Source of the DNA: a virus
DNA length: 64,000 nucleotides
IMG/VR virus record: IMGVR_UViG_3300020418_000005
Coordinates: 10,826 to 74,825 of that record
Direction: 5' to 3' (one strand)
Within the stretch, counting starts at the first letter, position 1, and every line of letters starts with the position of its first letter. Positions 10,432 to 50,100 of the stretch are shown one piece after another. A program made the translations under genes and the position numbers. The notes under the pieces are model-generated. The model saw only the letters and a list, made by a program, of their open reading frames with translations, was not told where the DNA came from and did no database searches.

Positions 10432-11221
10432 TATATTTATGTTCTAACAGTTTAGGCATTACTATACCATCCTGTGCTAACTGTGCTTGTAACTTCGGTG
10501 CGATCATTTTATTTAGTTTGTCAATACCACCACCAATCATACCAGAATACTGAACAGCAACACCAAGTGTTTCTACCTGATCTTCCTCTGGCATATCCAT
10601 GATTGTAGTCATGTTACCAGAACCAATTCTACCATAAGAAATAATATCCATTGCTGCTTGTTTGCCCATACGAGCAATCCAATACATTCTTACTTCCTGA
10701 TGATTCTCTTGACAATAATACTCTAAAGGATGCTCGTCGTCAACATATTTGTCAACAACATTTAAGAAATACTTTAACTCTAGTTCAGATTGCCTGAGTT
10801 TCCTTTTCCAAATACCAATATCATAATCATTTTTTTCCATATCAATTTGCATCAACTCTCTATCAAGTTCGTCAGGAAGCAATGGCATGTCCCTGTTCAA
10901 TCTTTTTCTAAGAATCTCTGCCTTTCTAAGACTATTTCTATTCTCCATGTATGCATGATATCTAGTTTCTAGTTCCATCAATGCTTGACGGACTTTTCTC
11001 CATGGAGTTAATTGAGGGTCAGCAACAAAGTGCTCACACTCATACTCTGTCATACCACTATCAAAACGCATAGATGCAGACAAGACATCAAAGTCTTTTT
11101 TAGTGAGTGCGAACTCGTCTACAAATGACTTTGATAAATGTATTTCGTTTGTGTCTGAACTTATTATATTTTTTACGTCTGCAATTATATCTGAAAAATT
11201 AGCGTCAGAATTTAAAGACAT
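10385..11221 (-). CDS. Hypothetical coiled-coil protein
   Basis: 278-aa ORF, TPWRKVRQALMELETR helical region; part of a coupled operon. Confidence 0.8.
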   Translation of the reverse strand: MSLNSDANFSDIIADVKNIISSDTNEIHLSKSFVDEFALTKKDFDVLSASMRFDSGMTEYECEHFVADPQLTPWRKVRQALMELETRYHAYMENRNSLRKAEILRKRLNRDMPLLPDELDRELMQIDMEKNDYDIGIWKRKLRQSELELKYFLNVVDKYVDDEHPLEYYCQENHQEVRMYWIARMGKQAAMDIISYGRIGSGNMTTIMDMPEEDQVETLGVAVQYSGMIGGGIDKLNKMIAPKLQAQLAQDGIVMPKLLEHKYSGQGENQYKLQGENG

Positions 11222-14448: not shown

Positions 14449-17400
14449 TTATACAATAGCCCAGTTACCACCACTATTTATAGTGACTGTATAACCGTTA
14501 GCAATGGTGATAGGTCCTGCACTAACACAGTTAATGTTTGCAGGAATTGTTATATTCTCAGCAACAGTATTACTGTTTGACTTGAATATACCATAAGAGT
14601 CGATCCACTGTTTAACGCCATTAGCATATAGGAAACCGTTCTCTATGTTAGTATCTCCAGAAATATGTAACTGATATGTTGGATTAGTTCTATTAATTCC
14701 AACTCTAGATAATCTGTAAATATCTAGATTGTTAGATGCTTCTGTCCATCTAGATGTTACGAACTCAGAGTTGTTCTGGAACAACTGTCCGTTAATGTTC
14801 ATATCACCTTGAACATTTAGATAGTAACTTCTAGTTGTGTTTGATTCAGAGTCAACACCAGATATTGCTGATGTATTAATAGCAACTCTTCTGTCACCTC
14901 TAACATAAATTGCAGGAGTGCTATCCCAGTTCTGACCACCATTGTTTGTAGATGGTGTTATCTCAAACGCATTGTTATGACCAATCTGGTTACCAATTCT
15001 AAAGTTTCTTTGTGAGTTAGAACCTAAGAAGTATATTGGTGCACCAGAGTTATCATTAGCAGAATCTATATATGCACCAGTAGTAAATCTTGCATTACCA
15101 CCAACATCAAGAGTGTAACTTGGATTGTTATTATTAACACCAAGTCTTCTTTCAGCAACGATATCTCCAAATACTTTAAATCCAGTGAGTGCTTCTGATC
15201 CAAACAATTCCCATCCATCGTTCCATGGAGTACCAGAAATAGATCCATCTTGATGCTTATACTGGAATGTTCCTTGTTGAGTGTATCCTCCTTGATGATC
15301 ACTAAATTTAATCTTAGCACCAACACCGTTACTACTGGTGCGAATTAGGATACCATCATTACCCTGTACGTGAAGTGTTGATGCTGGATTTGTAGTATTG
15401 ATACCAACCTCATAAGCAGATACATCAACAAACAAAGCACCAGAAACATTAAGATCATTATTAACGTTAGTGAAATTATTGAGGTTTGTAATACCAGCGA
15501 CTGTAAGTCCAGAAGTACCACCAGTGATGTTCAATGAACCAGTCATTGTATCACCAGTCTTCAATACGTTAAGTGATGCAGAACCAACTAAGTTTGCTGT
15601 AATTGTTCCAGCAGAGAAGTTACCAGATCCATCACGTTGTACAGCATAATTTGGTGTGTTGGAACTTGAGAATTGTATGTTACCTTGGTTCCAAACAACT
15701 TGGTTCTTAATTGTAAATCCGTCAGCATTTACAACATCAACGTTAAGAGAACCAGATCCTGCAGATGCATTACCACCTGATGCTTCTATCTTAGCGTTGT
15801 AACTAGCAGCGAGCTGAGATGAGTTGAATAATATTCTAGGTGTAGTTGCGTTACCATCTTTTCTACCTAGTTGTAACTGTCCAACACCACCATCACTATG
15901 TAAGTTACAAACTTCTAGTGTGTTACCATCTTCAATAGTAAAGTCATCAAACTCTACTCTGTTAGATGCAGTACCAACTGTTAGAGCACCAGCAAAATTA
16001 CCAGATGTAAGTCTACCAATTAAGATTGTAAAATCATTGAAGTTATCATTAACATCATCATTTGTGATAACGTTGTCAATAACAAAACTACCAACACCCT
16101 GTGCGTTAGCATTGTAAAGGTTTACAGATGGGTTATTAGGATCGCCAGGTATGAATGGTGCTGTATTTAATATTTGACCTGAGACATATATTCTAAACTT
16201 AGGATCACCAGCAAATGCTTTGATCGTGACCTTATCTCTAAACTTAGTCTCACTAATAAATCTAGGAAGTCTATTATCAGATAATGTTCCGTAGTTAATG
16301 TTTAATGCATTCTGATACCAAGCACCTTGTCTGTTGTCTAGTTTATCAGCATCCATTCCAGAATCAACACCATCACTTAATGATGTCCATACCTTCGCCC
16401 ATGAATTCCATGTGCTGACTCCATTACCAGAACCACGAAGATACATGTTGTCATCATTAGCAAATGCAAGTTGTCTTACACCACCAAACGATGCGTCAAA
16501 ACCAGAGGCACCATTTCTTATAGTTAGAACTAAGTGCTTAGTAGATGTTCCAGTTCCAATACCTGTGTTAACAGAAGGATATGCAGTTCCTAATCCATTA
16601 GAACTGTTGAATACTGTGTTAGAAATAACACCCTCAACGAAACTGTTTGGATTTGGGTTAGAGGTTGGGTTGTTAGTACCAGTTTGTAATCTAATTGTGT
16701 TAGCAGAAGATCCACTAATATCAATACCATATATACCACCTAGTCTATCTTGTGGAACTTGTCCAGCGAATAAGTGGTTTGCATTGGTATAGTAATTACC
16801 TTGCTGTCCATCTAATAAGTCAGCATCCAATCCACTATCAGGACCAGTCTTAAGTTCAACAGATCCGTTTCCTGCTTGACCAATATTAAATTGTGATTTT
16901 TTATATCTGGAAACACCAATTGTTCCGTAGAGGTCAGCAGAAATTGTTAGGTCAGTAACCCTGTTAATATCAAGAGAAACGTTTGCATACTGTCTATTGA
17001 CTGTACTTACTTTTGCATTTAATACTAAACTAGATCCACCACCAATTGATGATGGTGCAACTGTAATTGAGAAGTCAGCATTATATCCAGTACCACCATC
17101 AGTAACAGTAAGTTCTGTAACTGTATTACCAGAAACAACAATATTTGCTTTGAGTCCTGTACCAGTACCACCCTGTAAAGGTTGGTCAAAATATTGTCCG
17201 TTTGTAAATCCTGATCCGCCGTTTGCAATGATAACATCATCAACGAATCCACCCTGTGTAAAGGTAGACTCAAATGTCATTGGTGATTCACCACGCTCAA
17301 ACTCAATGATTGTTCCTAATGGAATATTTTGAGTAACTGGATTGTTCAATGCTATGGTTGTTAATCCAGCGGCAGTAACAACACCAGTGATACTTGTGTT

Positions 17401-20400
17401 TGCTTGAATACCAGCAATTCCTTGTAACACATCATGACCAATGAGAACGTCAGAGTTCGTGGTAAATACCATGGATGACGATCCAGTATTACACTGTGAT
17501 GCTAGTTTAGCAAAGTATCTTGTTTCAGCACCCTTAACTGACTGAACTGCTAATGCAAAGTTCTGGTCACCTCTTAAGAATGTGAATGAGTTTGCAGCAC
17601 CACCTGATGCTAATCTATCTGTCTCAATAACACCTGATGTAATATCTGATGCAGCAATCTGGTTGGATGATAGAGATACCCAGTTATTAACATTGAATGA
17701 AGATGTATTAATCGTTCTATTAATATTAACTGTATTTGCACTTGGTGTTGAACTATCATCAACAGTGTCTGTATCTTCAATCTTGATATTATTAACGATG
17801 TTACCATATAATCTACTCTCAATTAAAGGACTACCCTGTGCTTGTGTACCAGCACCTGGAGGAGCAGAGAATGTAACAGTAGGTTGTGTGGTATATCCTT
17901 TACCACCTTTAAATCCATTGAACTCAACAATAGTAACAGTAACAACCTGACCATTTGCAATCGTACAAGTTGCAGCTGCTGATACAGCACCAGCTGCAGG
18001 GTTACCACCTGAGAAACTAACAGTTGGTGCAACAGTATATCCAGAACCACCATTCGTGATGTTGACTGTGTATACAACACCTTGTCTATATTCTGTTGAC
18101 TGTATACGACCACCAGATATACTACCCTCGAAGATATCTCCAATTGTAAATGCGAGACTGGTATCTACTGCAAATCCTAAGAATAAACTTTCTAAGTCAT
18201 TGTTCAAGATGAATGACTGTGATGTATCCTGTTGGATAGCGATGTCACCAGCAAGTGCACCCTCTAGAGATGTTCTTTCTGCTTGGTTAGCAACTGTAAA
18301 TACACTGAATGGTCTTAGAGCAGGAATCTGGTCAATAGATATCTTACCAGAGTCAGTCAATTCAACTAGTGCTCTAGGAACAGCGTTGGTAGAATATGGT
18401 TTGTTGATGTAAGGTCCTAAAGAGTTAGTGATGTAGTCTCTAACCGCTTTCTGTGTAGGTAGTTTAGAGTCACTAGAGTTAGCACCACCCAATGTGTTAG
18501 ATGCGTCAAAACCAGTAACAACAACGTCACCACCTTTTAGTTTCAAGAATTCAACTTCAGAGATTGTAACCGTACCAGTGAAGGTAATAGCACCAGTTCT
18601 GTTTTCAATTCTAGCGAATGTACCAACCTTGAAGTCTCCAAGTTCGTCAGTACCAGAAACATATACACGACCATATAATTCAGAAACCTGTTCATATGCC
18701 TCAATCTTAGTACCACCGTTCTCAGGTAGTGCTAGGTAGTTAGTACCTGATCCAGCAAATTCCCAAGTGTGTGATGAGGAGTTAACGATAGATGGTCTAT
18801 GTAACTTGATATTTTTACCAAGAAGAACACCAGTAGATACTGGGTTTCCTGTGTTCAGATCAGTAAGATCCATACCTTGACCAGTACCATCATCAAATGT
18901 TAACTGTGCAGAGAATGGAGGACCTACAGTAACACCAGCAACAACATCAATAAAGTATTCTATATTTGTATTTGTATTTCTATATCCGTCAATCTTACCA
19001 ACATAATGCTCTAGTGGTTCTCTTCCTAATCCACTAACTGTAAGAATTGTTCTACCTGTAGGTGTAGCAGATACGTTACTGATTATACCTTGGTCAAATT
19101 CATAACACTCTGCTCTATATCCAACACCACGGAGAGCATATGTACCGAAGTTTGTAGCAGAGTTAGTAATGGAACAATAACCACCTGACTCAGCAAGTAC
19201 ACCATCTTGACAGAAGATAACAAACACAGAAACCAACTGTGTATAACCATCGTTAATAACTTTATATCCAGTACCACCAAAGGAGACAATCGTGAATGCA
19301 GATGCAACCATCGACTTACCCTGATTAGGGAAGGATGCAGTTCCATCTAGTTCAAGACCAGGAAATGGGCAGTTGGGTTGTTTAACTTTAGATCCATCAA
19401 CCAGTGCACCACCACCTCCTAAGAAAGAGATAACAGATGCGTTCTGTGTATATGGAGATGCCTCAATAATTGGGAAGTCATCAAAGTCACCACGAATTGC
19501 TACTCTCCTATTAAATTCATCATATAAGAAACTATCAGGGTATGTAAAGAGTAGTGAAGCATCAAATAAAGTTCCATATGTTCTTGGTGTAGAACCAGCA
19601 GCAGTTGTACCATCCAACACATCAGTCAATGTGCTCATGATTGTGTTGATAGATGTAGCAACTCCAGCACATAATGGTGCAGCTCCTGCAGCGTATACAG
19701 ATACAGAATTTGCATCCATTCTCTTAAACGTATGAGCAGCAGATGGTTGATGAATTATAGCACCAGTGCTTGCACTTACAAATGTGTGAACAGATTGTGG
19801 ATAATGTTGTATTGCATCAGCAGCTGCTGCTACAAACGTATGATTGGTTGTGTTAGATGATGTACCAACATTGACTGTTAAAGTTCCTGTCTGTCTCTTA
19901 AGACCATTTGATGTTGCAGTAACGAAAGTATGTGTTCCTCCAAATGCAGTAATACCAACATTAACTTCAAATGTATTATTAGTTTTGTTGAAAATTTGTA
20001 ACCATCTACCACTAGCACGGTCTGTAGCACGTGGATATGTATGGTTGGTTGCATTACCATCTAGAGAACATGTAAATGTTAATGAGTCATCATCAAATTT
20101 AACATAATCACCATCACTAAATCCATGACCATTACTGGTAACTACCATTACACCAGTGCTAGGTGTATATGTTGCATTTGAGACTGTATGCTGTGATTCA
20201 CTTACAGCAGTAATTGTTCTAGAAGTTCCAGATGCAGGATCAGAAGGTCTTGGATATGAATGGTTTGTAGCATTACCATCTTGAGCACATGTGAATACCA
20301 ATGAATTATCAACAATTACGATACCACGCCCAACTCCTAAACCATGCTGACCAACGGTCAAAATCATGTCACCTGTATTAGGATCATATTGTGCGTTTGT

Positions 20401-23400
20401 TGGAGTTAATAATTTATTAGCACCAGCTGCTCCTACATCAACAGTAATAGTTTCAGCTGATGTTGCTATGATTGGAATAGATCTTCCAGAAACATAATCA
20501 ACTGATGCACGAGGATAAGTCTTTTGACTTTGATTACTATCCATCGTACATGTAAATGTAAGTGAATCATCAGCAATAACAATTCCTTCATCTATAGTTA
20601 AATTATGAGATCCAATAGTTAAAACTAATAGACCAGTTGCAGAATTATAAACAGCGTTTGTTGGAGTAAATGTTTGGTTTGCTCCTGCTACACCAACATC
20701 AACTGTGATTGTAGTTGTAGTTACTGCAGTTACAGGTCTATTATTACCAAATGCTGGTTGTCCTTCTTGTGGATAACTATGCTCTGTAACATTATTATCC
20801 ATCGCACAAGTCATTGTTAATGCATTTTCAGCAATTCTAACTTCATTAGATGTCGTTACGCCATGACCAGAACCAACTGTCAATTCTAATTCACCATTTG
20901 CTGGATTGTAAGAAGCATTTGTTGGAGATAATATTCCAGATGCAGCACTTGAAGTAGCATCAAGAAGTATATTCCAATCTTCAAACTTAGGAATAGGTGA
21001 TGAGAGTTGCGTTGGATTGTAAATTATGATTGTTCCATTAGTTACAGAACCTACGTATGTGTGAGCAACACCAGCAGCAGGACCTGCATCTCCAACATTA
21101 CATGTAATTGTTGTTGTAGTTCCGTTACTTACAAGGTTTGATATGTTAAAACTTTTTCCATAGGATGGATCTGTTTTTGCAGGACCAGGATGGTTTGCTG
21201 TTACACCGTTATATGTACATGAGAAATTAAGTGCCTCTTCTTTGAATGCGATTCTATCTCCAATCGAAACTGGAATCAAAGGAGCAGGGAATGAAACAGT
21301 TAATTCACCTGATGTAGAATTATATGTTGAGTTATTTGGTGTAACCTCTAATACGTTTCCATCAGTCCAGTTACGCATTGCTGCGATAGCATATACTTTT
21401 GCTCTTCCAACAGCATATAAAGTTGGTGCACGTTGTGCTTCTTGAACACCAGTTAATTGTGTTCCTGTAAAGTATGATTCAGCAGCAGTTAAAATACCAT
21501 CATTACCACCTAACACTAAGTCTCTAATTAGACCATCTAATATTTTTCTAACATCTCTACGACATTTTCTTTCTGATGTGTCATCAAGATTTAAAAATGG
21601 GAAGTAATTTACTGTATCACGTAATGCTTGATCTGCAATAAGAACTTTGTTTCTAGAAATTAGATATGCAGCATCTAGATATGTTCCACTAGCATTGTTA
21701 GCAATGACATCATTCCATAAGAATGCTAGAGTATCAATAGCAGATGTTACATCATTACAAGCATTTCCACTATTGTTAACACTACCATCTGCATTTAACA
21801 AAGCGGTATTTGTAATTACAGTGTCATCAAAGTATCTTGTTAGACTAGAATATTTTGGTGTATAGATTGGTTCTGTAGGAGTTCCAGTTCCAGTTCTCCA
21901 GTTTCTTACGCAATATATTGCTAACTGTCTAGCATATTCAATAGCACGAACATTTTCTATAATTTCATCATCAATATATGTTATCTTACCACCAACAATA
22001 TACTTCTGAGCACCTTCAATAATGTTATGGTTTGTACCAAATTCTAAGTCTCTTATAAGAGCGTTGATAAAGTGAATAACATCTTGCTTACATTGTGTAT
22101 CACCATCATCTCCTGATGCACTATATGCACTGTATGCAGGATATATTTTATTACCAGCACTACAGGATAGAGTCATTCCCTCTAGTTTTATGACATCATC
22201 TTCTGCTAATCCTGCTATGGGTGACGCAGTTGTAACAGTAGCATTACCTGTAACGATATTATCGTAAACAAAATTAGTTACATTAACAGTGGTTCCACCA
22301 AATGTTACTGTACCACCAGAAACATATGTGTGTTCTTGTCCAGTAAGTCCAACAAATATTTTAAATGTACTTCCAGAAATATCATAAACAGAATAATGGA
22401 ATCTTGCAAACTGATTATTAACCTCACCAAGAACTTCCTCAGCAATAAACTCTCTGTTGTTACGAAGGAATGTACAAGCGTCTTGGAATCTTCTTTCTAC
22501 AGGAGTAGATAGCGGGAAACTGTTTGGAGAGTTTAGAAGTGAAAGTGTAATAGACTTTGAAAAAGTTTTTACAACAGCAAATTGACCAGGATCTAGATTA
22601 CCATCTGTGATCGCTGGCATCTTTTTAGGAATTACAAATCGTCTGCAACGACCATCAGCATCTTCAATTACTTTGTAAATTCTTTGCTTACCATTTAATA
22701 CTGATAAATCAGGACTAGAAGTTGGTAGTCCTTCAATTAAAATTTCTTGACCTTCTTTAAACTCGTGAGTGTTATTTCTACCAACCAATGCGTTTGTATA
22801 GAATACAATACCACCTAAATCTTCTGCATTACCAAACTGTGCATTTTGAAAACCACCTTGAGCAATACTAGGATCACCTTGTAATGAGAAATCAATTCTA
22901 GAAATAGGTAATGATGAAACGTAATCTTCGTCAACAGATACAACTTCACCCTCAGCTCTAATTGATTTAAGAGAATTTGTATTTAAAGTATTGACTGTAG
23001 CATTTCCTGTAAAGGTTTCTATTTGTGCTGTGAATGCATTGTTCCAACCAGTAGCACCTAGAAGAGGTACAAATGTTACTTCCCATGCTGTAGGAGTGTT
23101 GACATCATTAGGTTCAATTAAAGCAACTTCGTAATATCCAGTTGATGCAGTAAATGCTGGATTACCAGCGTCGGAAAGATATACATATGTTCCTGTAGGA
23201 ATTGCACTTGTAGGATCTTGAGTATATGTAATTTTATTAGCAGCTGTTGTACCTGATGTTGTCAATGATTGTTGAGCACCAGTCGTAATTGAAACTACGT
23301 AATTAAATTGTTCACCTTCTACAAAAGAACCACTGACTAATTTAACATCAATAGTACCAGAGACATATGCACTAGCACCAGTTGTTTGAGCAAAATTAAC

Positions 23401-24822
23401 AGCAATAATATCTGCCCTTGCACCAGTGTTAACACCAACAACTTGTAAACCAGTAGCTAAATTTGCTAAACCAGTGTTATCTTGGAAACCAACACGGAAC
23501 TGTTGAGGTCCGAATATCTGATGACCTATAGGCCAAGATGTTCCAGCATCTCCATTTGCTTCTTTATCAATTATGACTCTTTGCTTATCGTCAAAGACCA
23601 TAGCAAAGTCCCAAGTAGCAACAGGGTCACCGTTAGAGTCAATCTTATCTCTATAGGTAACACCAATCACATAGTTCTTATCACCAAACTTAAATATATG
23701 TTTCTGTGGGTTAGCAGGACGAATGATAACCAAACGTAAGTTATCTCCAACAACTGATGCATCAGGAGGTAGTGATATTGGGTTATCTTCTACATAGTCA
23801 CCACCAGATACAATAATAGTTTCTTTAACGCCAGGTGTTGCCCATGCTAATTGTGCAGCTTTTTTAATACTTCTAACTGGGTTTACAGCAGATCGACCAT
23901 CGTTAAGGTCAGAACCAATCTGTTGTGAAACGTAAATACGACCACCAACGTCATTCGTTGCTAAGTTAAGGACGTATTCTGTAGTTGCAATCTTGTCTGA
24001 TCTGTCACCTAATAGAGGTGTAATAGATCTTGGAAACTCTCCTGCAGGTCCTGTCTCACTATATCCAAATGCATTAGTATCTACAACACGGAAACCAATA
24101 TGTTTGAACTGTACTTCACCATTTAATGCAATACCATCTGTATGTACAGGAGCATCAGAACCTGTCTGTCCAGAGTTTAATGCTTGGTATACGTTTGCTC
24201 CAAAATATCTGTAAGCATTTGTCTGTAGAATAATATTTGGAGACCAAAGAGTACCAGAGTTATTAACAAATGTTTTTAAAGATGGTGCTCTAAATGCTGC
24301 GTTAGGAGTAACAAAATTGTCAATATCAAGGTTTAGGATTCTCGCAGTATCTGAGATGATAGAAGTTGAGGTTCTAATCGCACCGTTAATGTCAAGTTCA
24401 AAGTCTACAGTATCAAGAACTGCTGTTGCAGCAGCACCAACACCACCACCGCCTGATAAAGTAACAAGAGGTGCTTGTGTATATCCACTGCCTGGTTCGT
24501 TAACAGCAACAGAAACAACTTGTCCGTTAAAGATAAAGGCAGAACCTTGTGCTTGTACACCTCCACCTGGTGGTGCAGCAATTGTTACAGTTGGTGGTGA
24601 TATGTATCCAGAACCACCAGCATCTATCTGAACGTCATTAACTCTCTGACCCGTTCTGTTGATACCAACACGTGGCAATCCTGTACTAGCGTCTAACTGC
24701 GTTCTTAGTATTTCTTTTTCATCAGAACCAGTCCCGCCTCTAACGGTAAGTTCATTGTCGCCGATAAGTTTCGGGTTGACGCCCCTAAACTTTTCTTTAT
24801 CGGAATTAATATGAATTGCCAT
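14449..24822 (-). CDS. Giant tail fibre protein (3457 aa)
   Basis: GGSGY..PTVT repeats, KIATTEYV, GLDADLLDG/DADKLD, VLKTGDTMTG, VGINT.NP...L.V.G trimeric fibre repeats; CTAAATA site near 24863. Confidence 0.88.
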   Translation of the reverse strand: MAIHINSDKEKFRGVNPKLIGDNELTVRGGTGSDEKEILRTQLDASTGLPRVGINRTGQRVNDVQIDAGGSGYISPPTVTIAAPPGGGVQAQGSAFIFNGQVVSVAVNEPGSGYTQAPLVTLSGGGGVGAAATAVLDTVDFELDINGAIRTSTSIISDTARILNLDIDNFVTPNAAFRAPSLKTFVNNSGTLWSPNIILQTNAYRYFGANVYQALNSGQTGSDAPVHTDGIALNGEVQFKHIGFRVVDTNAFGYSETGPAGEFPRSITPLLGDRSDKIATTEYVLNLATNDVGGRIYVSQQIGSDLNDGRSAVNPVRSIKKAAQLAWATPGVKETIIVSGGDYVEDNPISLPPDASVVGDNLRLVIIRPANPQKHIFKFGDKNYVIGVTYRDKIDSNGDPVATWDFAMVFDDKQRVIIDKEANGDAGTSWPIGHQIFGPQQFRVGFQDNTGLANLATGLQVVGVNTGARADIIAVNFAQTTGASAYVSGTIDVKLVSGSFVEGEQFNYVVSITTGAQQSLTTSGTTAANKITYTQDPTSAIPTGTYVYLSDAGNPAFTASTGYYEVALIEPNDVNTPTAWEVTFVPLLGATGWNNAFTAQIETFTGNATVNTLNTNSLKSIRAEGEVVSVDEDYVSSLPISRIDFSLQGDPSIAQGGFQNAQFGNAEDLGGIVFYTNALVGRNNTHEFKEGQEILIEGLPTSSPDLSVLNGKQRIYKVIEDADGRCRRFVIPKKMPAITDGNLDPGQFAVVKTFSKSITLSLLNSPNSFPLSTPVERRFQDACTFLRNNREFIAEEVLGEVNNQFARFHYSVYDISGSTFKIFVGLTGQEHTYVSGGTVTFGGTTVNVTNFVYDNIVTGNATVTTASPIAGLAEDDVIKLEGMTLSCSAGNKIYPAYSAYSASGDDGDTQCKQDVIHFINALIRDLEFGTNHNIIEGAQKYIVGGKITYIDDEIIENVRAIEYARQLAIYCVRNWRTGTGTPTEPIYTPKYSSLTRYFDDTVITNTALLNADGSVNNSGNACNDVTSAIDTLAFLWNDVIANNASGTYLDAAYLISRNKVLIADQALRDTVNYFPFLNLDDTSERKCRRDVRKILDGLIRDLVLGGNDGILTAAESYFTGTQLTGVQEAQRAPTLYAVGRAKVYAIAAMRNWTDGNVLEVTPNNSTYNSTSGELTVSFPAPLIPVSIGDRIAFKEEALNFSCTYNGVTANHPGPAKTDPSYGKSFNISNLVSNGTTTTITCNVGDAGPAAGVAHTYVGSVTNGTIIIYNPTQLSSPIPKFEDWNILLDATSSAASGILSPTNASYNPANGELELTVGSGHGVTTSNEVRIAENALTMTCAMDNNVTEHSYPQEGQPAFGNNRPVTAVTTTTITVDVGVAGANQTFTPTNAVYNSATGLLVLTIGSHNLTIDEGIVIADDSLTFTCTMDSNQSQKTYPRASVDYVSGRSIPIIATSAETITVDVGAAGANKLLTPTNAQYDPNTGDMILTVGQHGLGVGRGIVIVDNSLVFTCAQDGNATNHSYPRPSDPASGTSRTITAVSESQHTVSNATYTPSTGVMVVTSNGHGFSDGDYVKFDDDSLTFTCSLDGNATNHTYPRATDRASGRWLQIFNKTNNTFEVNVGITAFGGTHTFVTATSNGLKRQTGTLTVNVGTSSNTTNHTFVAAAADAIQHYPQSVHTFVSASTGAIIHQPSAAHTFKRMDANSVSVYAAGAAPLCAGVATSINTIMSTLTDVLDGTTAAGSTPRTYGTLFDASLLFTYPDSFLYDEFNRRVAIRGDFDDFPIIEASPYTQNASVISFLGGGGALVDGSKVKQPNCPFPGLELDGTASFPNQGKSMVASAFTIVSFGGTGYKVINDGYTQLVSVFVIFCQDGVLAESGGYCSITNSATNFGTYALRGVGYRAECYEFDQGIISNVSATPTGRTILTVSGLGREPLEHYVGKIDGYRNTNTNIEYFIDVVAGVTVGPPFSAQLTFDDGTGQGMDLTDLNTGNPVSTGVLLGKNIKLHRPSIVNSSSHTWEFAGSGTNYLALPENGGTKIEAYEQVSELYGRVYVSGTDELGDFKVGTFARIENRTGAITFTGTVTISEVEFLKLKGGDVVVTGFDASNTLGGANSSDSKLPTQKAVRDYITNSLGPYINKPYSTNAVPRALVELTDSGKISIDQIPALRPFSVFTVANQAERTSLEGALAGDIAIQQDTSQSFILNNDLESLFLGFAVDTSLAFTIGDIFEGSISGGRIQSTEYRQGVVYTVNITNGGSGYTVAPTVSFSGGNPAAGAVSAAATCTIANGQVVTVTIVEFNGFKGGKGYTTQPTVTFSAPPGAGTQAQGSPLIESRLYGNIVNNIKIEDTDTVDDSSTPSANTVNINRTINTSSFNVNNWVSLSSNQIAASDITSGVIETDRLASGGAANSFTFLRGDQNFALAVQSVKGAETRYFAKLASQCNTGSSSMVFTTNSDVLIGHDVLQGIAGIQANTSITGVVTAAGLTTIALNNPVTQNIPLGTIIEFERGESPMTFESTFTQGGFVDDVIIANGGSGFTNGQYFDQPLQGGTGTGLKANIVVSGNTVTELTVTDGGTGYNADFSITVAPSSIGGGSSLVLNAKVSTVNRQYANVSLDINRVTDLTISADLYGTIGVSRYKKSQFNIGQAGNGSVELKTGPDSGLDADLLDGQQGNYYTNANHLFAGQVPQDRLGGIYGIDISGSSANTIRLQTGTNNPTSNPNPNSFVEGVISNTVFNSSNGLGTAYPSVNTGIGTGTSTKHLVLTIRNGASGFDASFGGVRQLAFANDDNMYLRGSGNGVSTWNSWAKVWTSLSDGVDSGMDADKLDNRQGAWYQNALNINYGTLSDNRLPRFISETKFRDKVTIKAFAGDPKFRIYVSGQILNTAPFIPGDPNNPSVNLYNANAQGVGSFVIDNVITNDDVNDNFNDFTILIGRLTSGNFAGALTVGTASNRVEFDDFTIEDGNTLEVCNLHSDGGVGQLQLGRKDGNATTPRILFNSSQLAASYNAKIEASGGNASAGSGSLNVDVVNADGFTIKNQVVWNQGNIQFSSSNTPNYAVQRDGSGNFSAGTITANLVGSASLNVLKTGDTMTGSLNITGGTSGLTVAGITNLNNFTNVNNDLNVSGALFVDVSAYEVGINTTNPASTLHVQGNDGILIRTSSNGVGAKIKFSDHQGGYTQQGTFQYKHQDGSISGTPWNDGWELFGSEALTGFKVFGDIVAERRLGVNNNNPSYTLDVGGNARFTTGAYIDSANDNSGAPIYFLGSNSQRNFRIGNQIGHNNAFEITPSTNNGGQNWDSTPAIYVRGDRRVAINTSAISGVDSESNTTRSYYLNVQGDMNINGQLFQNNSEFVTSRWTEASNNLDIYRLSRVGINRTNPTYQLHISGDTNIENGFLYANGVKQWIDSYGIFKSNSNTVAENITIPANINCVSAGPITIANGYTVTINSGGNWAIV
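19697..21345 (-). repeat. Five ~90-aa protein repeats (TP.NA.Y...TG.L.LT...FTC..D.N...H.YP) within the tail fibre
   Basis: Visible in the translation; divergent at DNA level. Confidence 0.85.
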
Positions 24823-41101: not shown

Positions 41102-41121
41102 TATTTATACGTTTATTTATA
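41102..41121 (-). promoter_or_regulatory. Tandem T4-type late promoters TATAAATA upstream of g8
   Basis: tatttata at 41102-41109 and 41114-41121. Confidence 0.7.
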
Positions 41122-44100
41122 CGATTGATATAGGTACTATCTCAGATCCAGACGCAATCTGATTATCACCATTATGTCTAGTACAACCAGTGAAGCTGTT
41201 AGCAGTCTTACCAGTATACTTGATTATGCCAGTATATGTACCATTGTTATGTAAAAGATACCCTGTTGTTGGGAAGTAAGTTGTGTCTTGTACAACAATA
41301 TCTCCGCCAATAGTTCCTACTGTAGAACTAATAGCAACAGGATTTTGTATTGATGGTAGTGCAAGATTAAACTTATCTCCTGCCTTTGTAAAGGTAGATT
41401 TTGCTCTATCTACAAAGTCACCAAGAGTTAATGATGGGAAGTATGTTGATATATCAGAGATTGTTAGGTTAGATACATCACAGGTTCCATCATCAAATGA
41501 TATGTACTGCCAGTTTCCTATGTTAGGACCTACAGTAGTCTTAATGTAAGAACCGACATATTCGTTAGTTCCAAATTTTTCGTTTCTTATCTCAATAATT
41601 GTTCCATCACGTTGAGTAACAGTATAGTTACCAAGAGCATTCTCAATCAAATCAACTTGGTTTTGATTTCTCTGTTGTACAGGATCATTGATGAATGCTG
41701 TTTCCTCATAACCATCTATTGCACCGCCAGGTGGAGGTACGATAAGAACTTCTACTGCTTCCTTAGTAATTTCTAAATCACTAGGACTGGTTACTTGTCT
41801 CTGTACTTTTCTTTCAAATCCAGAATCAACAAATCCAATGTTAATCATCTTAACATCACTTTCAGACTCAACCTGTAGTAATCCAGCAGATATAACTGTT
41901 ACATCTTCAATCTGTCTGAGGTATGTTCCTGCAACCCAATCTTGTTCAGTAGTATTTTCATAACCTCTGATAATTTGATAGAATCTATCAGAAAGTTTCT
42001 TATTATAATAGACAATCTCATTACCAACCATCAATCTACCCATAGGAGCAAACTTAAATGTATCAGGAATGTAAGCGATGGTATCACCAATATTAAAGTC
42101 AAGATCCAAGTAAGCAGCATTCTCAAAGTAGTTAACATTGCTAATTGCATTGTTAGGAATCTCAATCTGTTGAGTTGCTGTGATTGCCTTAGATACAGTA
42201 GAAATAGAATTGAGAGATACAATATCTTGAATCTCTGCAGAGACAACAGTTGCTTCGTACGCAGGACCTTCAAAGACTTGTACATCAGCAGCTGCGGTTG
42301 GTCTATTAGTATTAATTTCTACATAATCTCTTTCTGGGTCTAATGCACCACCAATAGAGAATACCTCTATTTCATCAGGAGTAAACTCTCTTTCAAATTG
42401 AATCTCTGCACCACCATCAGGTGCTCTTACTGATAATGTACTAATACCTGTAATAGAACTAAGACCAGACTCATCAATCTCAGTAATGACTGAGAAAGCA
42501 CTCATTCCACCACTTTCAACAAATGGACTAACCGCTACATTGATTAAAGAAACACCAACTTCCCTATCACTTAGTATATCAAATCTTCTAGTTGTAATAA
42601 CTTTAGGTGCTTTAGTATATCCAGAACCACCATCAATAAGATCAACACTAATAACTTGACCTTTACTTACAAGAACATTTGCTCTTGCACCACCACCATT
42701 ACCATCTAATGATTCAAACTTAAGTACAGGAGGTGTGAAGTATTGATATGCAGTTGGTTGTGTAAGTGGATTATAACTACGCTGATTCCATGTAAGAGAT
42801 ATTACAGACCCATTTTCAATTTCTGCAACCACAGAAAGACCTTCTCCTCTCGTAATTCCAGTATAAGTCTCAACTGAGACTGCACCAAAGATATCATCAG
42901 ATGTTTGTTCATTAGGTCTTCCATCTTTACTGGTAGTTTCAGTAGGAAGTTTTTTGATTCTCCTAAATTTATCCTCACCTTCAACTCTAATATTATCTTG
43001 ATTAGAAAGATAAACAAAAGGTGCTTTATATGTTTTACCATAATTTGTTCCAGACCAATCAGCATTAGCATCTCTTAATATCTTTCTACCATCAGCATCT
43101 TTTTTAAAGTTTAAAATCTCATCTGCTATTTCTCCATCTGTTAGTACAAATGTATTATTATAGTTTCCTTTAGATGCAAATGTATAATCTAAACCAGCCT
43201 CTATATTAGAGTTATGGCATTTTAGAGTAAACACCACTGTATTTCCAGTTCTGATTGGATTTGTAATCTCACCAATTATATTTTTAGTATTATCTGCCCT
43301 TGTTTGCCAAACATGAATAGGATTACCAATTTTCTCATTCATCCAAGAATACTTAAGTAAAGTATCCATATTTTGTTGAGATGCAGTAAATGAGAATGTA
43401 CCTTGACCAAAATAAGAATCTGGTGCAAAATCATATATGTTTAATATTTGACCTACGTCTCTACCATAGAGATAACGTATATCAATTCTCATTTCTTTTT
43501 TGATAGAATCATGGAATGTGATGTTAGGACCTGATACTGTATATGCTTTTCCTTTTACTTGCAACACACCATCCAAGAACACATAGAGACTGTCTTCAGA
43601 TTCTATGTTTTGTACAGTCATATCTTCCACATCAAGAATTAAGAAAGGACCGTTTCTAACACCATCTACTAAATCAAAATCAATAGTAAGTCTCTTGTAA
43701 TTACCTACACCTATACCCACAACTTTTTCTACAGCAGTTGGTTCACCAATAGTCTTAGCACCTAAATCTTGATCCCATATAGGAGCAACATCAAATTTAA
43801 CTACGTTAGGAATAACAGTTCTATCAATCCAGTATGCGTCTTGTAAAGGATAATTTTCTGTAAACTTAGGTCTTTGTAATACAGAATTTATAGTCAAGAA
43901 TAAATCTTCATCCTCTTCTGTGTCTACTTCAGTATTATCATCCCAATATAATTCAAAATCTGTAGTCTCACCATCAATATAGTCAGGTAGACTTCTTGTT
44001 GTAGATTCTTCTTTGATAGTACCACTCAAATTATCGTATAAAGAATCCATCGCAGAGATTACAGTAGTACACTCTTCTGCAGGAAGTAAAGGATCACCAA

Positions 44101-47100
44101 GTATATTGTAATTAGAATATGTTACTGTGCCAGTCCAATTACCAGACTTATTCTGATTGACTGGTGTTTTCTCTATTAGACCACGCCCTTCTGTAAGGAT
44201 AGTATTGACAATACTATGGTATGTGTTAAGTGTACTCTCTACCTCTGCACATACAGGACTTAGTGAATCTACAATAGCATTGGGATCAGTGGTTGGTAAC
44301 TGGTTTCTCATTGCCTGTACCATTAGATCCTTAGCATAATTAAATGTCGCAACTGTCTCAGTTAGAGATCCAGTGATATAATATAATTCTTCTCCATAAG
44401 GATATTCTTTCTTCTGATAATATAACTGTGCTGCTTCTACAATTTTGAAGTTACCACCCATCTTAAGATGATACACATATGCGTCTAATATGAGACCAAT
44501 GTCTCTACCACATTTACTACTGATAGTTCCCCAGTTTAATGATGGGTACTGTGCTTGTGCCCATGCGAGTGATGTAGAAATAATATATGCTCTGTTAGAA
44601 CTAATCAATTGTCCTGCTTTATAGAACATACCTTTGTTCAATGCACTCCAACCAAACTTAGCTTGTGTTGTACCTGAGAAAGAAAGAGGTACTGTGACAG
44701 TTGCACCAGGTGGCACACTGAATGTAGATCCTAATGGAACTTGTGCAGTGCTAGTAGCAATAGAACCTGTGCTACCTGTTCCAGTTACAGGAGTGGTTCC
44801 TGCTGGAGCACCTCCACCACCACCAGAGTTTGCTAGTGCTGCATTGTTTAGTGTTATTTGAGTCTCACTATCAATAGATACAATCTTAGTTCCTGTTGGA
44901 TATGATCTACCAGAACTTACAAATAGACCAATAGCAAGATTCTTAGTGCTACTGACAGTCATTGTTTTCTGACCTTGAACATATTCAATGTTTACATCAA
45001 CAAAGTCCCAGTTTCTAATTGCAAGTTTTGCTAACCTAGTTGCGTATTCAAATATGTCATTAGACTCTGTTTTATAATTCCTGATGTAAAGATAGGCACT
45101 ACCAGAACTAAAGATAGATGCATAATCAATAGTTTTAACATTACCACCAAATCTTATATCATGTTGATAAGCATCTAAGATTGCTCTGATGTTTGCTTCA
45201 TAGTCATCTTGTTTTGTTGCCCAATCTAATGATGGGTGTGTCGCTTTACCATATCCAACAGTCTCATTAACAATAAACTGCACATTTCTTTCTATTTGAT
45301 TTGCAGCATCAATCCATGTTCCACCACGTTGGAATATATTTCTTACTTTTTTGAAGTATTTTGTGTTATATTGTTCTTCTTTAAATTTAAAGACCTTACC
45401 ATAGAAAGTAACACCAGCAAGAGGTGGTTGAGAAAATACAATACTTCCAGAACTTAAACTATATGCAACGCCAGGTTCTTGTATAACTCCGTCAAGAGTT
45501 ACAATCATATTTTTTTGTTTGTTGTCTGCTAGATTAAATGCTACACCATCTTTCTTAGTAGTGAATGTTGTAGTTCCTTGTAATCTTCCATCATTATCAA
45601 AATAACCATCAAATGATGCATCAAGTGTAAATTCAAATATCTCTGCTTCATTAAAATTAAAGTCACTTGTTGCTGCAGTACCAAAACCTTTACGTATTCT
45701 TTGGTTCTCTATTTTTTGTACAGTTTGTGTAACAGTTCTTCTAGAATTCTCAACTGTAATCTTATTCTTATCAGGATCCCATAATTGTACAACACTAAAA
45801 TGTGATGAGTCAGGAATACGTTTCTTAGGTAACTCAACTAAAGAACCTTGATCTGTTGTTTCTAAATTAGCAGTTGCTTCAAGATCTACTTGACCAAATA
45901 GTTTAAATCCAGCAGGGTGTGTAGTAGCTTTAATTAAATCACGCCACTGTTCAATAGATGTTCCTGATTTTATAACATAAGAATAGTCTTGATAGAATGT
46001 GCTATCCAATATCTTTTGATTTTGTACACCTAGTTTTCCTTTGTCTGATTGATAGTAACCTAAGTTATCATAGAAACTAGAAATCTCTTCATTAAATGTA
46101 GTTACAAAAACAGATTGAACAATTCCTGATACAGGCATCAATACAGATTCTATAGAAATGTTTTGACGAATGATGCCAGTAGAATTTGCTACCTTAAGTA
46201 AGTTAGATCCAAATCTCCATTCTACTACTGTTGCTCTGAATACTTCTACACCATTAATTTTTTGTACTACTTGCTCACCAATTCTAAAATTACCATTATA
46301 ATCTCTAAGAGAAAGAACATAGTTAGAACGGAATGTAGATGATACAGTTTCATCTAAGTGGAATGCTCCACCATTAGATGTTATCCTTACACTTTGTGGT
46401 ACACCTATAGTAGTGCTTTCTGCATATGCTTCGACATCACCTTCCACAATGAGAATTTCTGGTGCATATGTGTATCCTTTACCTGTTTTTTCTACAGTGA
46501 TAGATGTAACTTTTCCATCTCTAACTAAAACTTTGAACTTTGCGTCTGCACCATCTGATTTAGTAACTACAATTTTAGGATTTACATAGTTAGATCCTTC
46601 ATTTGTAATGTCTACTCCTGTTATTGTCTGAGATGCTGTATCAAATAATACAGTCGCTGTTGCTCTGTAAGATTCATTAGGATCAATACCAGTAATAATT
46701 GGAACTTTTTTATAATTGAGTCCTAAATTTATGATGCTGACCTTATCAATCTTACCGATAGCAAACTGACCAGTAGTAGTGTAAGAAATGGATCCAGAAC
46801 CATCCCATAGAGGAGTGTTGATAACATCATAAACGAAACGATTTGGTGTAACATAATTGATAGTCTTAGTTCCTTGTAGAGGATCAGTTACTATTTTAAA
46901 GTATGCTCCTTCTGCATTTACTACATTCTTATTATCAAAGTAATAGAAGTTTGTAAAATCTGTTCCAACTTTTGTTTGGTAGTTATTAGTAGCAAGTCTA
47001 GAACCAAATCCAAACTTAACATCTGTAAATGCACCAGAGTTGCCAGGTAATACAGTAGATTCTAATTTCTCTACTGTAATTAAATTGTAGTTTCTACTTG

Positions 47101-50100
47101 GACTAATATCAAAGTAAGTCCCAGTGAGACTAGAATGAGACGTATCAAACTTATATTTGTAAAATTCTTGTAGATCTATGTTAGGGTTAGGTACAAATGT
47201 ACTATTGTCTTCTGAGAATTCAAATTTGTATACTACATCTTCAGCAGATCTAACAGAAACTAATCTTTGTGGTGAACTTGTATCAAAGAAACTAGAACTT
47301 AATACAACCTTATTTGCATTAGTGTTCAATGTTGCATAATCATATACAATGATTATCTTATGTGTTACAGGATCATATGATTGTATGTAACCTGATAATG
47401 AACCAGTAAAAATCTGATAATTGTTTGTGAAGTTATATTGAGCTTTGTAAAGAGATACTTCTTGTCCATCAAAATGATCTACATCTGTAGTTCCTTCTTG
47501 TCCTCTTATTACAGAAATATCATTTGCATTAATACCAGAAATTTTTAAAATTTCTTGACCTATTTGTATAAGATCATTTTCTGCAAATCCTTGTGCACTA
47601 TCTACAGTAACTTTTGTTGCACCAGCAGCAATACCAACATGTCCAACATATAGAGTTAATCTTGCTGTTGATGTAGATGCACCAGACCTTACTAGATCTT
47701 CATCAGCAACTGATAGATAATCACCCTGTGCATATCCAACACCAGCATCTTGTATCTGTATGTCAGAAATTACCCCTGCATCAGAAACAGTAAAGATAGC
47801 AGTTGCTCCAGATCCCGATCCACCAGTAAGAGCAACACTAGTGTAAGTACCAGCTGTATAGTCAGCACCACCATTAAGGACTTCATATCTTCCTATTCCT
47901 GTAAAATTAATTTTTGTTTTTGCACTAGGAGGTAATAAAATTGCCTCTTGATATAACCTCTTTCTTACATAGTAATTTTTGGTTTTAGTATTATCATTAG
48001 GATTAATTTCTATATCTACATTATCTCCAATTCCTAATCCATGTGGTGATGTTGTTTCTATTAAAGCAACACTTTGATTAACTTCAAACGGATTTAATCC
48101 ATCACTAAGAGATGTAAGTCTTACAATTCTAGTTCCAGAAGTATTGAACAAATCACTAGACTGTAAGAAATAATTATCATCTACAATCCATGTACCTGTC
48201 AAAACCTTGATCTGGACTACGTTTTGAGCAGAAGTTCCTTCTAATACCTCAGCAGTTGCAATAGGTGCATTGACACCATCAGTCAAACTTAATGTAGCAC
48301 CTTTTGTATAAGAACTTCTTTGATCTAGTAAAACATCAAATGTCTTAATTGCAGCAGAGAATGTACCAGTATTATCAAACGTACCAGTTACATTTTTTAG
48401 TACAATTGTACTATCATTCTTAACTGTACCAACAATAGAACCAAATGCACCAGATGAAGGTTGAGTTAATGTATCATCTGCAAACAAATATGCATTTTGA
48501 ATAACTGTTAACTTAACAACCTTATCTTCTTTTGACTGTAAGTAGGATACAGTTTTACCTTTTACAGAAGATATAATTGCTTCTGCTTCTGAACCTTGTG
48601 TTCCTGTATTATCAAAATATACTTGTGAATTTATAGAGAAGTTAGCAGAAGAATCTACTACTCTAACACTTTCCACATTACCCTGTTTTACTTCTTCTAT
48701 TTGTGCAAGGAATCCATCTCCATTACGTGGCATTCCTGCTTGGTAAAAACGTCTTGCTTTTTTAGGAATATCGTTTTGATTGATATTAGAATTGTAATTA
48801 CTATCAACAGGTAACGAGTAAAAATTCTCTCCTAGAATGTATGGATATTGCGGTACTTGATTGCTATCAATAGTAAGGAAATAAGCATAAGTTCCTTGCG
48901 GAAAGTCTGGGGTAATACAAAATCTTCCATTGTTTTCATCTAGTGTGCCACTTTTGTGGGTATAGGTATAGTCATTGACAAAAGTTCCAATAGGATATCT
49001 TGTCAAATCAGGTCCTTCAGAACGATTACCATTGATAGAATAACTAGATGTCATTCTAATAATAGATGACGTAGAATCTAAAGGATTCTCATAACCAAAC
49101 GCACCATATATTGGATTGCCATCATATGCAAAACCAATTATAGGTGAGTGTGATTTAGATGCTGGTTCTGTTCCAGCACTGTTTATATTGTCACTGAGTG
49201 AGACACGAAGTGCTTTCGGGTTTGCAGCATAACCATAACCATATTCTAGTACGTTATTATAGTTATCAAATACATAACCGTTTTCTGTATCTAGTTTAGA
49301 CTCTAATTTTTTGTATCTATTGAAATTCCATTCTTTAAGAAGAGGTATACCAGTCGCTCCATTACCTACTGGAACTATGTCAACTATTACAGTATCTTGA
49401 CTATAGAAATTACCTTCTGCAATTTTATTAAAACCAGTAATCTGTCCATCAGTATTGACTATTGCTTCAAACTCAGCAAATCTACCTCTACCAGCATTAT
49501 CTCTAATTTCAATTTTTGGAGGAGAAGAATAAAACTCACCAGCATTATCAAGTATTAGACTTGTTACCTTACCACCAGTAACCACAGCACGAACAGCAGC
49601 ATTTCTACCAGATGTAATTATTATATCTGGAGTTCTAGGAAATACATCACTGGTGTCTACAGTTATGCTTTCTACGACCTGTCCTGCTAATATTGCTCTT
49701 GCTTTATTAGGCACTTGATCTATCAATACAAAAGGTGGTCTTACATATCCAGTTCCACGAAGATCAACCTTGATTTGTTCTAACTTACCATATCTAATGC
49801 TTTCTGGATCTTTGTAACCATAGAAAGGTACACCATTTAATCCAATACCAACATCTCTTTTAGGTGTGGGATATGTTTCTGTAGTTCTAGTTGCTTGCTT
49901 TCTAATAATACGAAGAAGTTTCTGATCTAATACTGTTTGATTGACAACAGAACCATCTAAAATTTTATGTGATGGAAAACTAGAACTAGCAATATAATAA
50001 TACTGATCGTCAGCAAGTATAGCAGATACATTTGTTGATACTTGATCTAATGATGTAGAGACTGCTGGTAACGTGGGAACATTAACTGCATTACCAGTTC

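Follow-up and report, generated by a model that had tools for sequence, protein, structure and literature searches.

Two probable phycobiliprotein-type globin domains in the giant tail-fibre protein of an IMG/VR virus

A stretch of 64,000 nucleotides of DNA from a T4-like cyanophage (positions 10,826 to 74,825 of IMG/VR record IMGVR_UViG_3300020418_000005; this whole stretch is called the window below) encodes on its minus strand a tail-fibre protein of 3457 aa. We propose, with a probability of about 0.85, that two segments of this protein, domain A (residues ~774-1046) and domain B (residues 1046-1159 plus ~1712-1745), are divergent globin-fold domains of the phycobiliprotein/bilin-binding-globin superfamily. 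Both domains are located in the fibre shaft, immediately before its putative β-helix, and each is broken by β-module insertions. They belong to a family of modules found in giant virion proteins, and for this family as a whole we hold homology to the superfamily even a little more firmly.

Two probable globin-fold domains in a giant tail fibre

The fibre open reading frame (ORF) is matched by the PHROG family phrog_5342 'tail fiber protein' with E = 0, and its orthologues in the Synechococcus phages and myoviruses Sf-CH1b, ACG-2014j and S-RIM32 are annotated as tail fibres. The original prediction, which was read from the sequence alone, had described two phycobiliprotein (PBP)-like domains in this protein on the basis of six motifs and four Cys residues, and translation placed all of them where they had been claimed. 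The motifs of domain A lie at fibre residues 781-797, 910-929 and 1020-1032 and those of domain B at residues 1050-1067, 1085-1106 and 1716-1728, together covering 19639-22482 of the window. The Cys codons are at 22090-22092 (C911), 21757-21759 (C1022), 21562-21564 (C1087) and 19669-19671 (C1718). Cys makes up 22 of the 3457 residues of the fibre (0.64%), and six of these are in a repeated β-module motif. The phycocyanin motifs used for comparison agree with the real CpcA and CpcB sequences fetched from cyanobacterial genomes.

The two domains arose as an internal duplication. When residues 770-1049 were compared with residues 1050-1800 by blastp, 905-1007 paired with 1081-1183 over 103 residues (2e-11). 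A profile of the module family described below matched domain B over its full length (residues 1043-1159, E 4e-44) and domain A in two pieces, 776-814 (4e-5) and 905-978 (8e-19). By its profile matches domain A reads as one module split after the first helix, and in domain B the closing helix of the module (1043-1159) comes ~550 residues downstream.

A single-sequence AlphaFold prediction of residues 770-1190 was useless, with a predicted local distance difference test score (pLDDT) of 36. AlphaFold2 (AF2) was given a 150-row alignment of orthologous fragments and two-module stretches from IMG/VR loci, and the resulting model of fibre residues 765-1165 had a pLDDT of 84.5 and a predicted TM-score (pTM) of 0.79. 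In a Foldseek search of the PDB, the best matches were mostly phycoerythrin and phycocyanin, with 20-24% identity and target-normalised TM scores of 0.45-0.57. With VIA-align, the best 50 matches were all PBPs, with Z of 14.6-16.4 and a root-mean-square deviation of 2.2-3.4 Å over 137-160 of 172-184 residues. A search of 48,161 representative chains that did not depend on Foldseek placed PBPs, including the bilin domain of ApcE, at ranks 1-7; the next neighbours were photocobilins and globin-coupled sensors with Z ~11 and classical heme globins with Z ~7. An ESM Atlas look-up returned phage-structural neighbours only and was uninformative. Helices B, E, F, G and H are present in the module model and the X-Y-A helices are absent. 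A Pro/Ser-rich linker precedes the domain, whose first helix is the equivalent of helix B, and residues 1-10 of the model have pLDDT < 50. Since the modules repeat in tandem with a period of 100-170 aa, there is no room for the X-Y helices.

Searches of Pfam and of PDB sequences with the fibre itself gave nothing relevant, and the sequence relationship was seen with profiles. Two module profiles were searched against 177,635 PDB sequences with hmmsearch: 20 of the 22 matches of the first (A1) were PBP α chains, and 13 of the 14 matches of the second (A2) were PBPs, nearly all α. Both module copies align to PBP residues 34-104, with their Cys, Arg and Asp on C84, R86 and D87. For profile-profile comparison with hhalign, real cpcBA operons were pulled from cyanobacterial genomes by a short DNA pattern. 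The module profile matched CpcA with a Prob of 93.7 (P 1.9e-7) and CpcA and CpcB together with a Prob of 92.2 (5.8e-7) over 90 columns, and a second run gave a Prob of 86 (E 5e-6). The true score was 45.9, compared to 10.3 for reversed columns and 12.4 ± 2.9 for shuffled columns. When 111 single modules were compared with Pfam, PF00502 was the sole family that matched more than two of them (7 members, best E 2.6e-4, below or near threshold). The module profile also gave weak matches in five cyanobacterial genomes (E 0.18-0.57), mostly to open frames of 166-172 aa, which is the size of a PBP subunit.

Several observations weigh against the assignment. The best E values of the PDB profile search, 0.009 for A1 and 0.018 for A2, are marginal when taken singly. 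The best PF00502 match in the record, which is in another ORF (gp7-like), reaches 13.3 bits (E 0.0027 for the record) against a gathering threshold of 22.2; the fibre itself has no PF00502 match at E <= 1, and domain B alone matches no Pfam family. The structure-comparison tool itself notes that helical models may reach Z ~14 by chance. Compact modules of 100-119 aa have no space for helix H. Finally, three further invariant residues of the module, Asp, Asn and Tyr at +14, +20 and +30 from the Cys, do not match the PBP invariants R93, Y97, G114 and E117, which lie outside the Cys-x-Arg-Asp (CXRD) motif and the GG turn.

Because the Pfam threshold is missed and the X-Y-A helices are absent, we regard the modules as divergent relatives and not as members of PF00502 in the curated sense. 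Within that limit, the globin-type model with PBPs as its top structural matches, the PDB profile search, the profile-profile comparison with its shuffle controls and the sub-threshold PF00502 matches all confirmed what had been predicted, namely two PBP-like globin-fold domains with a Cys84-type site on the helix E equivalent. The features are listed in Table 1.

Table 1. Coordinates of the fibre domains, of the modules in the second virion ORF and of the bilin-synthesis cassettes (window positions unless a genome is named)
Feature	Position	Strand	Basis
Giant tail-fibre ORF, 3457 aa, holding domains A and B	14449..24822	-	ORF list, translation, PHROG phrog_5342
Domain A, residues 774-1046, probable PBP-fold globin domain split by β insertion	21685..22503	-	AF2 model residues 10-282, VIA-align
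Domain A first helix, residues 776-804, PBP helix B equivalent	22411..22497	-	Model helix 12-40, pLDDT > 80; profile positions 3-41; aligned to CpcA 34-64
β-sandwich insertion between helices B and E of domain A, residues 808-895, including C887	22138..22401	-	Model strands 45-130
Domain A helices E, F, G, residues 907-972, with C911-K-Q913-D914	21907..22104	-	Model helices 143-164, 168-178, 189-208; profile positions 39-113
Domain A last helix, residues 1022-1040, C1022 first	21703..21759	-	Model helix 258-276
Domain B N-terminal part, residues 1046-1159, helices B, E, F, G, with canonical K-C1087-R-R1089-D1090	21346..21687	-	Profile match 1-117; model helices 282-309, 317-340, 344-351, 364-385; aligned to CpcA K83-C84-x-R86-D87...G102
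~550-aa insertion of repeated β modules inside domain B, residues 1160-1711	19690..21345	-	LTFTC...YPR-type repeated motif in translation; self-comparison
Domain B closing helix, residues 1712-1745, C1718 first	19588..19689	-	Motif position; likeness to domain A last helix by eye only; outside modelled segment
Module with C-G-R-D in gp7-like ORF	44159..44641	-	Module-profile hmmsearch, domain E 2.7e-27
Degenerate module without Cys/CxRD in the same gp7-like ORF; place of the sub-threshold PF00502 match	44969..45337	-	hmmsearch, domain E 1.1e-19
Heme oxygenase-bilin reductase cassette in four jumbo genomes	G001:C1:243389-244533; G002:C1:197155-198278; G005:C1:269196-270384; G453:C1:287030-288224		Jumbo genomes of 250-364 kb

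The β insertion of domain A resembles phage tail-tip domains, among them residues 490-566 of lambda gpJ (Z 7.9) and the baseplates of R4C, Chi and JBD30, and it has relatives in the repeats of the ~550-aa insertion of domain B. Further along the fibre, residues ~1800-1906 (window 19105-19420, minus strand) are Gly-rich and Cys-containing and, judged by eye from the translation, have the look of a right-handed β-helix.

A virus-borne module family

When residues 770-1190 were searched with HMMER against 1.84 billion representative proteins, 433 relatives were found at E <= 0.001. Many of them are very large proteins (2000-7000 aa) that matched over 10-33 stretches and in which the modules recur every 100-170 residues, and an iterated profile gathered 1324 module copies. 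The core module spans 100-120 aa, which a fifth helix extends to 130-170 aa, and it is present from once to ~30 times per protein. Its hosts are tail-fibre, gp7-like baseplate and other giant virion proteins of T4-like cyanophages and of uncultured T4-like jumbo viruses. This virus-borne family is not annotated by Pfam. In the window, a second giant virion ORF (41117-52108, minus strand, 3663 aa), which is baseplate-wedge/gp7-like by its PHROG matches (phrog_4406, phrog_2885 and phrog_708), carries two modules.

A query rich in modules was run against 50,697 cultured phage records and matched 193, all of them from Synechococcus or Prochlorococcus myoviruses apart from a few marine single-cell virus records; the host proteins in these records are annotated as gp7, tail fibre or tail protein. 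The largest arrays were observed in uncultured T4-like viruses with Gp23 capsids and without psbA. For the capsid proteins of these viruses, the closest counterparts belong either to PA5oct, Phosso and Vibrio jumbo phages or to Flavobacterium and Microcystis phages. The idea of a cyanophage-specific module was rejected, as the richest arrays are in these viruses. No module was found in the 401 cyanobacterial genomes searched. This absence and the arrays in T4-like viruses without psbA together indicate that the family is virus-borne and wider than the marine cyanophages.

The CXRD site and the question of a chromophore

CXRD is the bilin-attachment motif of PBPs and of the bilin biosynthesis-associated globins BBAG-1/3, in which the Cys forms a thioether and the Arg and Asp bond to the chromophore (PMC10151467). 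Helix E of the module starts with K-C-x-R-D-V-G-Y-I-I-D-A-V..D-L..G-G-N, and at the level of sequence it aligns residue for residue with the CpcA chromophore site K83-C84-x-R86-D87...G102. In the 1324 aligned copies, the Cys is kept in 97-100%, the Arg in 93-99% and the Asp in 99-100%, although the copies are only ~20-30% identical. Since these three residues are near-invariant among copies that share about a quarter of their residues, retained ligand binding appears to be the best explanation.

Domain B carries the full module signature, K-C-x-R-D...D-L..G-G-N...Y...Q/E...T. The predicted Cys84 site with a bilin-binding Arg-Asp pair therefore held for domain B (C-R-R-D). It did not hold for domain A, which has C911-K-Q913-D914 with Gln in the place of the Arg, so that the full CXRD is found in domain B only. 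C911 itself is conserved in 116 of 116 orthologous fibres. A second Cys in each domain, C1022 and C1718, had been equated with the β-subunit Cys153/155. Both are kept within the fibre lineage, C1022 in 116 of 116 orthologues and C1718 in 80 of the 81 in which the region was found, but neither column is Cys in the wider module family, and the β-Cys153/155 match had no statistical support. The domain A orthologue profile was not significant against CpcB (hhalign Prob 0.15), and the equivalence is therefore drawn solely from an approximate agreement in position, where the last helix begins. C783 is conserved in 111 of 116 orthologues, and C887 is likewise strictly conserved in the fibre lineage.

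We consider it close to an even call that the canonical modules bind a bilin. While virions are assembled in the infected cell, a module such as domain B would take up a linear tetrapyrrole; its Cys would form a thioether, and, as in PBPs and CXRD-type BBAGs, the propionate and pyrrole nitrogens would be held by its Arg and Asp. The fibres and baseplate of the virion would then be lined with bilins. A lyase may be dispensable for attachment; BBAGs attach bilins themselves without one (PMC10151467). Domain A, with its Gln, may be a weaker or a purely structural copy.

Genomic context is consistent with this proposal. Genes for heme oxygenase (HO) and a ferredoxin-dependent bilin reductase (FDBR) are adjacent in four of the four uncultured module-bearing genomes that are at least 90% complete, none of which has psbA, a figure counted among module-bearing genomes alone, the related contigs being nearly all short fragments. 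These genomes carry 25 (G001), 14 (G002), 7 (G005) and 11 (G453) modules. G453 came from a separate search with a DNA pattern of the motif, and in the other three the HO and FDBR reading frames overlap. Two more contigs of the G002 lineage, 81-84% complete, carry the reductase too. Among related cultured phages, pcyA is present in Sf-CH3, Sf-FP1 and one ACG-2014j record. Such reductases were found by tblastn in 23 of the 50,697 cultured phage records, a count from a query that probably misses divergent PebS-type enzymes. In the reverse direction, 3 of 17 FDBR-bearing viral contigs have modules, which says little because all 17 are fragments (7-81% complete).

Other findings argue against bilin binding. 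Domain A lacks the Arg that the family keeps in 93-99% of copies. Neither FDBR nor CpeT was found in the record that holds the window, which is 39% complete. No CpeS-type lyase was found in five array-bearing uncultured genomes, and CpeT was found in one of the five. The Pelagibacter phage Mosig has an HO-FDBR cassette and no module that we could find, and the module profile found none in P-SSM2, which we take to encode PebS and HO. Given these two phages, phage bilin genes do not exist solely for the modules, and a service to the modules exclusively was rejected. In Mosig, a phage of a heterotroph, HO and the bilin reductase are located directly upstream of the neck and tail-sheath genes (MT647606.1 35653-44279), after a ferrochelatase and a run of 2OG-Fe(II) oxygenases.

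Much of this would also be expected if the fold and ancestry were the same and no chromophore were held, a reading to which we give somewhat less than even odds. The PBP-type module would then have been reused as a rigid spacer, like beads on a string, and the invariant Cys, Arg, Asp, Asp and Tyr would form a buried polar network or an inter-chain contact. A structural repeat present in tandem in up to ~30 copies in virion proteins fits such a role, as do the module invariants that differ from the PBP pocket residues and the absence of the X-Y-A helices and, in compact copies, of helix H as well. Degenerate copies without the Cys or with Gln for Arg persist, no lyase was found in most array-bearing genomes, and no paper on pigmented virions was found. 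Conservation of three bilin-contacting residues at 93-100% against ~20-30% overall identity, however, is hard to obtain from packing alone, and the single invariant Cys of each module cannot make an intramodule disulfide. The HO and FDBR genes in all four complete module-bearing genomes without psbA also speak against a mere spacer, and the missing lyase loses weight because BBAGs show that attachment without one is possible.

It is improbable that the Cys serves another chemistry, either by joining chains or modules through a disulfide or thioether and so hardening the fibre, or by binding a different ligand such as a metal or heme, as in sensor globins. C783 (in 111 of 116), C887, C1022 and C1718 are conserved in the fibre lineage and could pair with the CXRD Cys, and globin-coupled sensors and heme globins are structural neighbours (Z 7-11). 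The extra Cys residues are nevertheless not conserved in the wider family, no proximal-His-type residue is among the invariant columns, PBPs rank well above the heme globins, and the conserved partners of the Cys are exactly the bilin ligands of PBPs. Least credible is a generic helical bundle with a fortuitous CxRD, modelled by an AlphaFold drawn to a memorised PBP fold: it would suit the marginal single hidden Markov model E values, the missed Pfam thresholds, the single-sequence pLDDT of 36 and the high chance Z of helical folds, but four methods, three of which use sequence only, point to one family and align the same residues over 52-90 columns, beyond the motif itself, the scores of shuffled and reversed controls are far lower, no unrelated Pfam family recurs, and the structural match covers nearly the whole PBP chain with PBPs exclusively in the best 50.

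If the modules do bind bilins, a further role can be imagined. Cyanophages P-HM1 and P-HM2 fail to adsorb in the dark (Liu et al. 2019, PMC6628666). Adsorption of S-PM2 is light-dependent without a need for host photosynthesis, and P-SSM2 and P-SSP7 adsorb in the dark (PMC6628666). The module profile found 4 modules in P-HM2 (NC_015284.1), 10 in S-PM2 (NC_006820.1) and none in P-SSM2 (NC_006883.2) or P-SSP7. Module presence thus parallels the adsorption phenotype in four phages, which are far too few, two of them being of another morphotype or lineage. Speculatively, this is the pattern that a photoreceptor role would predict. That virion modules carry chromophores, so that fibres and baseplate act as bilin photoreceptors gating adsorption, seems unlikely to us on this correlative evidence. 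If true, it would explain why S-PM2, P-HM1 and P-HM2 attach only in the light, independently of host photosynthesis, and why HO/bilin-reductase cassettes occur in phages that apparently do not infect phototrophs, as such phages would be pigmenting their own particles. PMC11480375 asks why bilin-synthesis genes are present in phages, some of which are not believed to infect phototrophs. The virion modules make both the cause of light-dependent cyanomyovirus adsorption and the purpose of phage bilin genes testable. Even if free of pigment, they form a large family that accounts for a considerable share of the giant virion proteins labelled "hypothetical" in aquatic T4-like phages. A full-text literature search found no paper that links phycobiliprotein or globin folds to phage virion proteins and no report of pigmented virions.

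Comparison with known phycobiliproteins and bilin-binding globins

PBPs have so far been the antenna pigments of cyanobacteria and some algae, with the bacterial cytoplasmic BBAGs as a sister group. The virion modules would form a third branch, which is structural and virus-borne. With the PBP α and β subunits (CpcA/B, CpeA/B and ApcA/B; PF00502) they share helices B, E, F, G and H, the helix B pattern A..L...N..I......P, and the K-C-x-R-D that starts helix E and is followed by a hydrophobic helix up to GG. CpcA is the closest by sequence, and the β subunits are the closest by structure. The modules differ in the lack of the X-Y (or A) helices that serve α-β pairing. A PBP is a free subunit of 160-180 aa that pairs into α-β monomers and builds (αβ)3 discs, whereas the modules are present as 1-30 copies in virion proteins of 2000-6000 aa with large β insertions. 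They are also virus-encoded, differ in their other conserved residues and fall below the Pfam threshold.

The core-membrane linker ApcE offers a parallel in architecture, as its PB domain is likewise located inside a large multidomain protein and interrupted by a loop. Its structures (4xxi_A, 7eyd, 9wg7 and 7sc7) matched with Z of 12.2-13.4. ApcE attaches its bilin autocatalytically and so gives a precedent for loading without a lyase. In contrast to the modules, ApcE has a single PB domain, is a cellular protein of the phycobilisome core, and has its attachment Cys elsewhere than at Cys84.

The BBAGs, photoglobins and photocobilins (Rockwell et al. 2023, PMC10151467) are, like the modules, distant relatives of PBPs outside light harvesting, and BBAG-1/3 carry CXRD and self-attach bilins. 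Photocobilin structures were among the structural neighbours, with Z of 10.6-11.8. BBAGs were compared by their published description. They are single small cytoplasmic proteins of bacteria, whereas the viral modules are tandem parts of virion proteins. BBAGs are defined by their genomic association with HO and FDBR; such genes were seen in all four complete uncultured module-bearing virus genomes, with Mosig and P-SSM2, in which no module was found, as counter-examples to a strict link.

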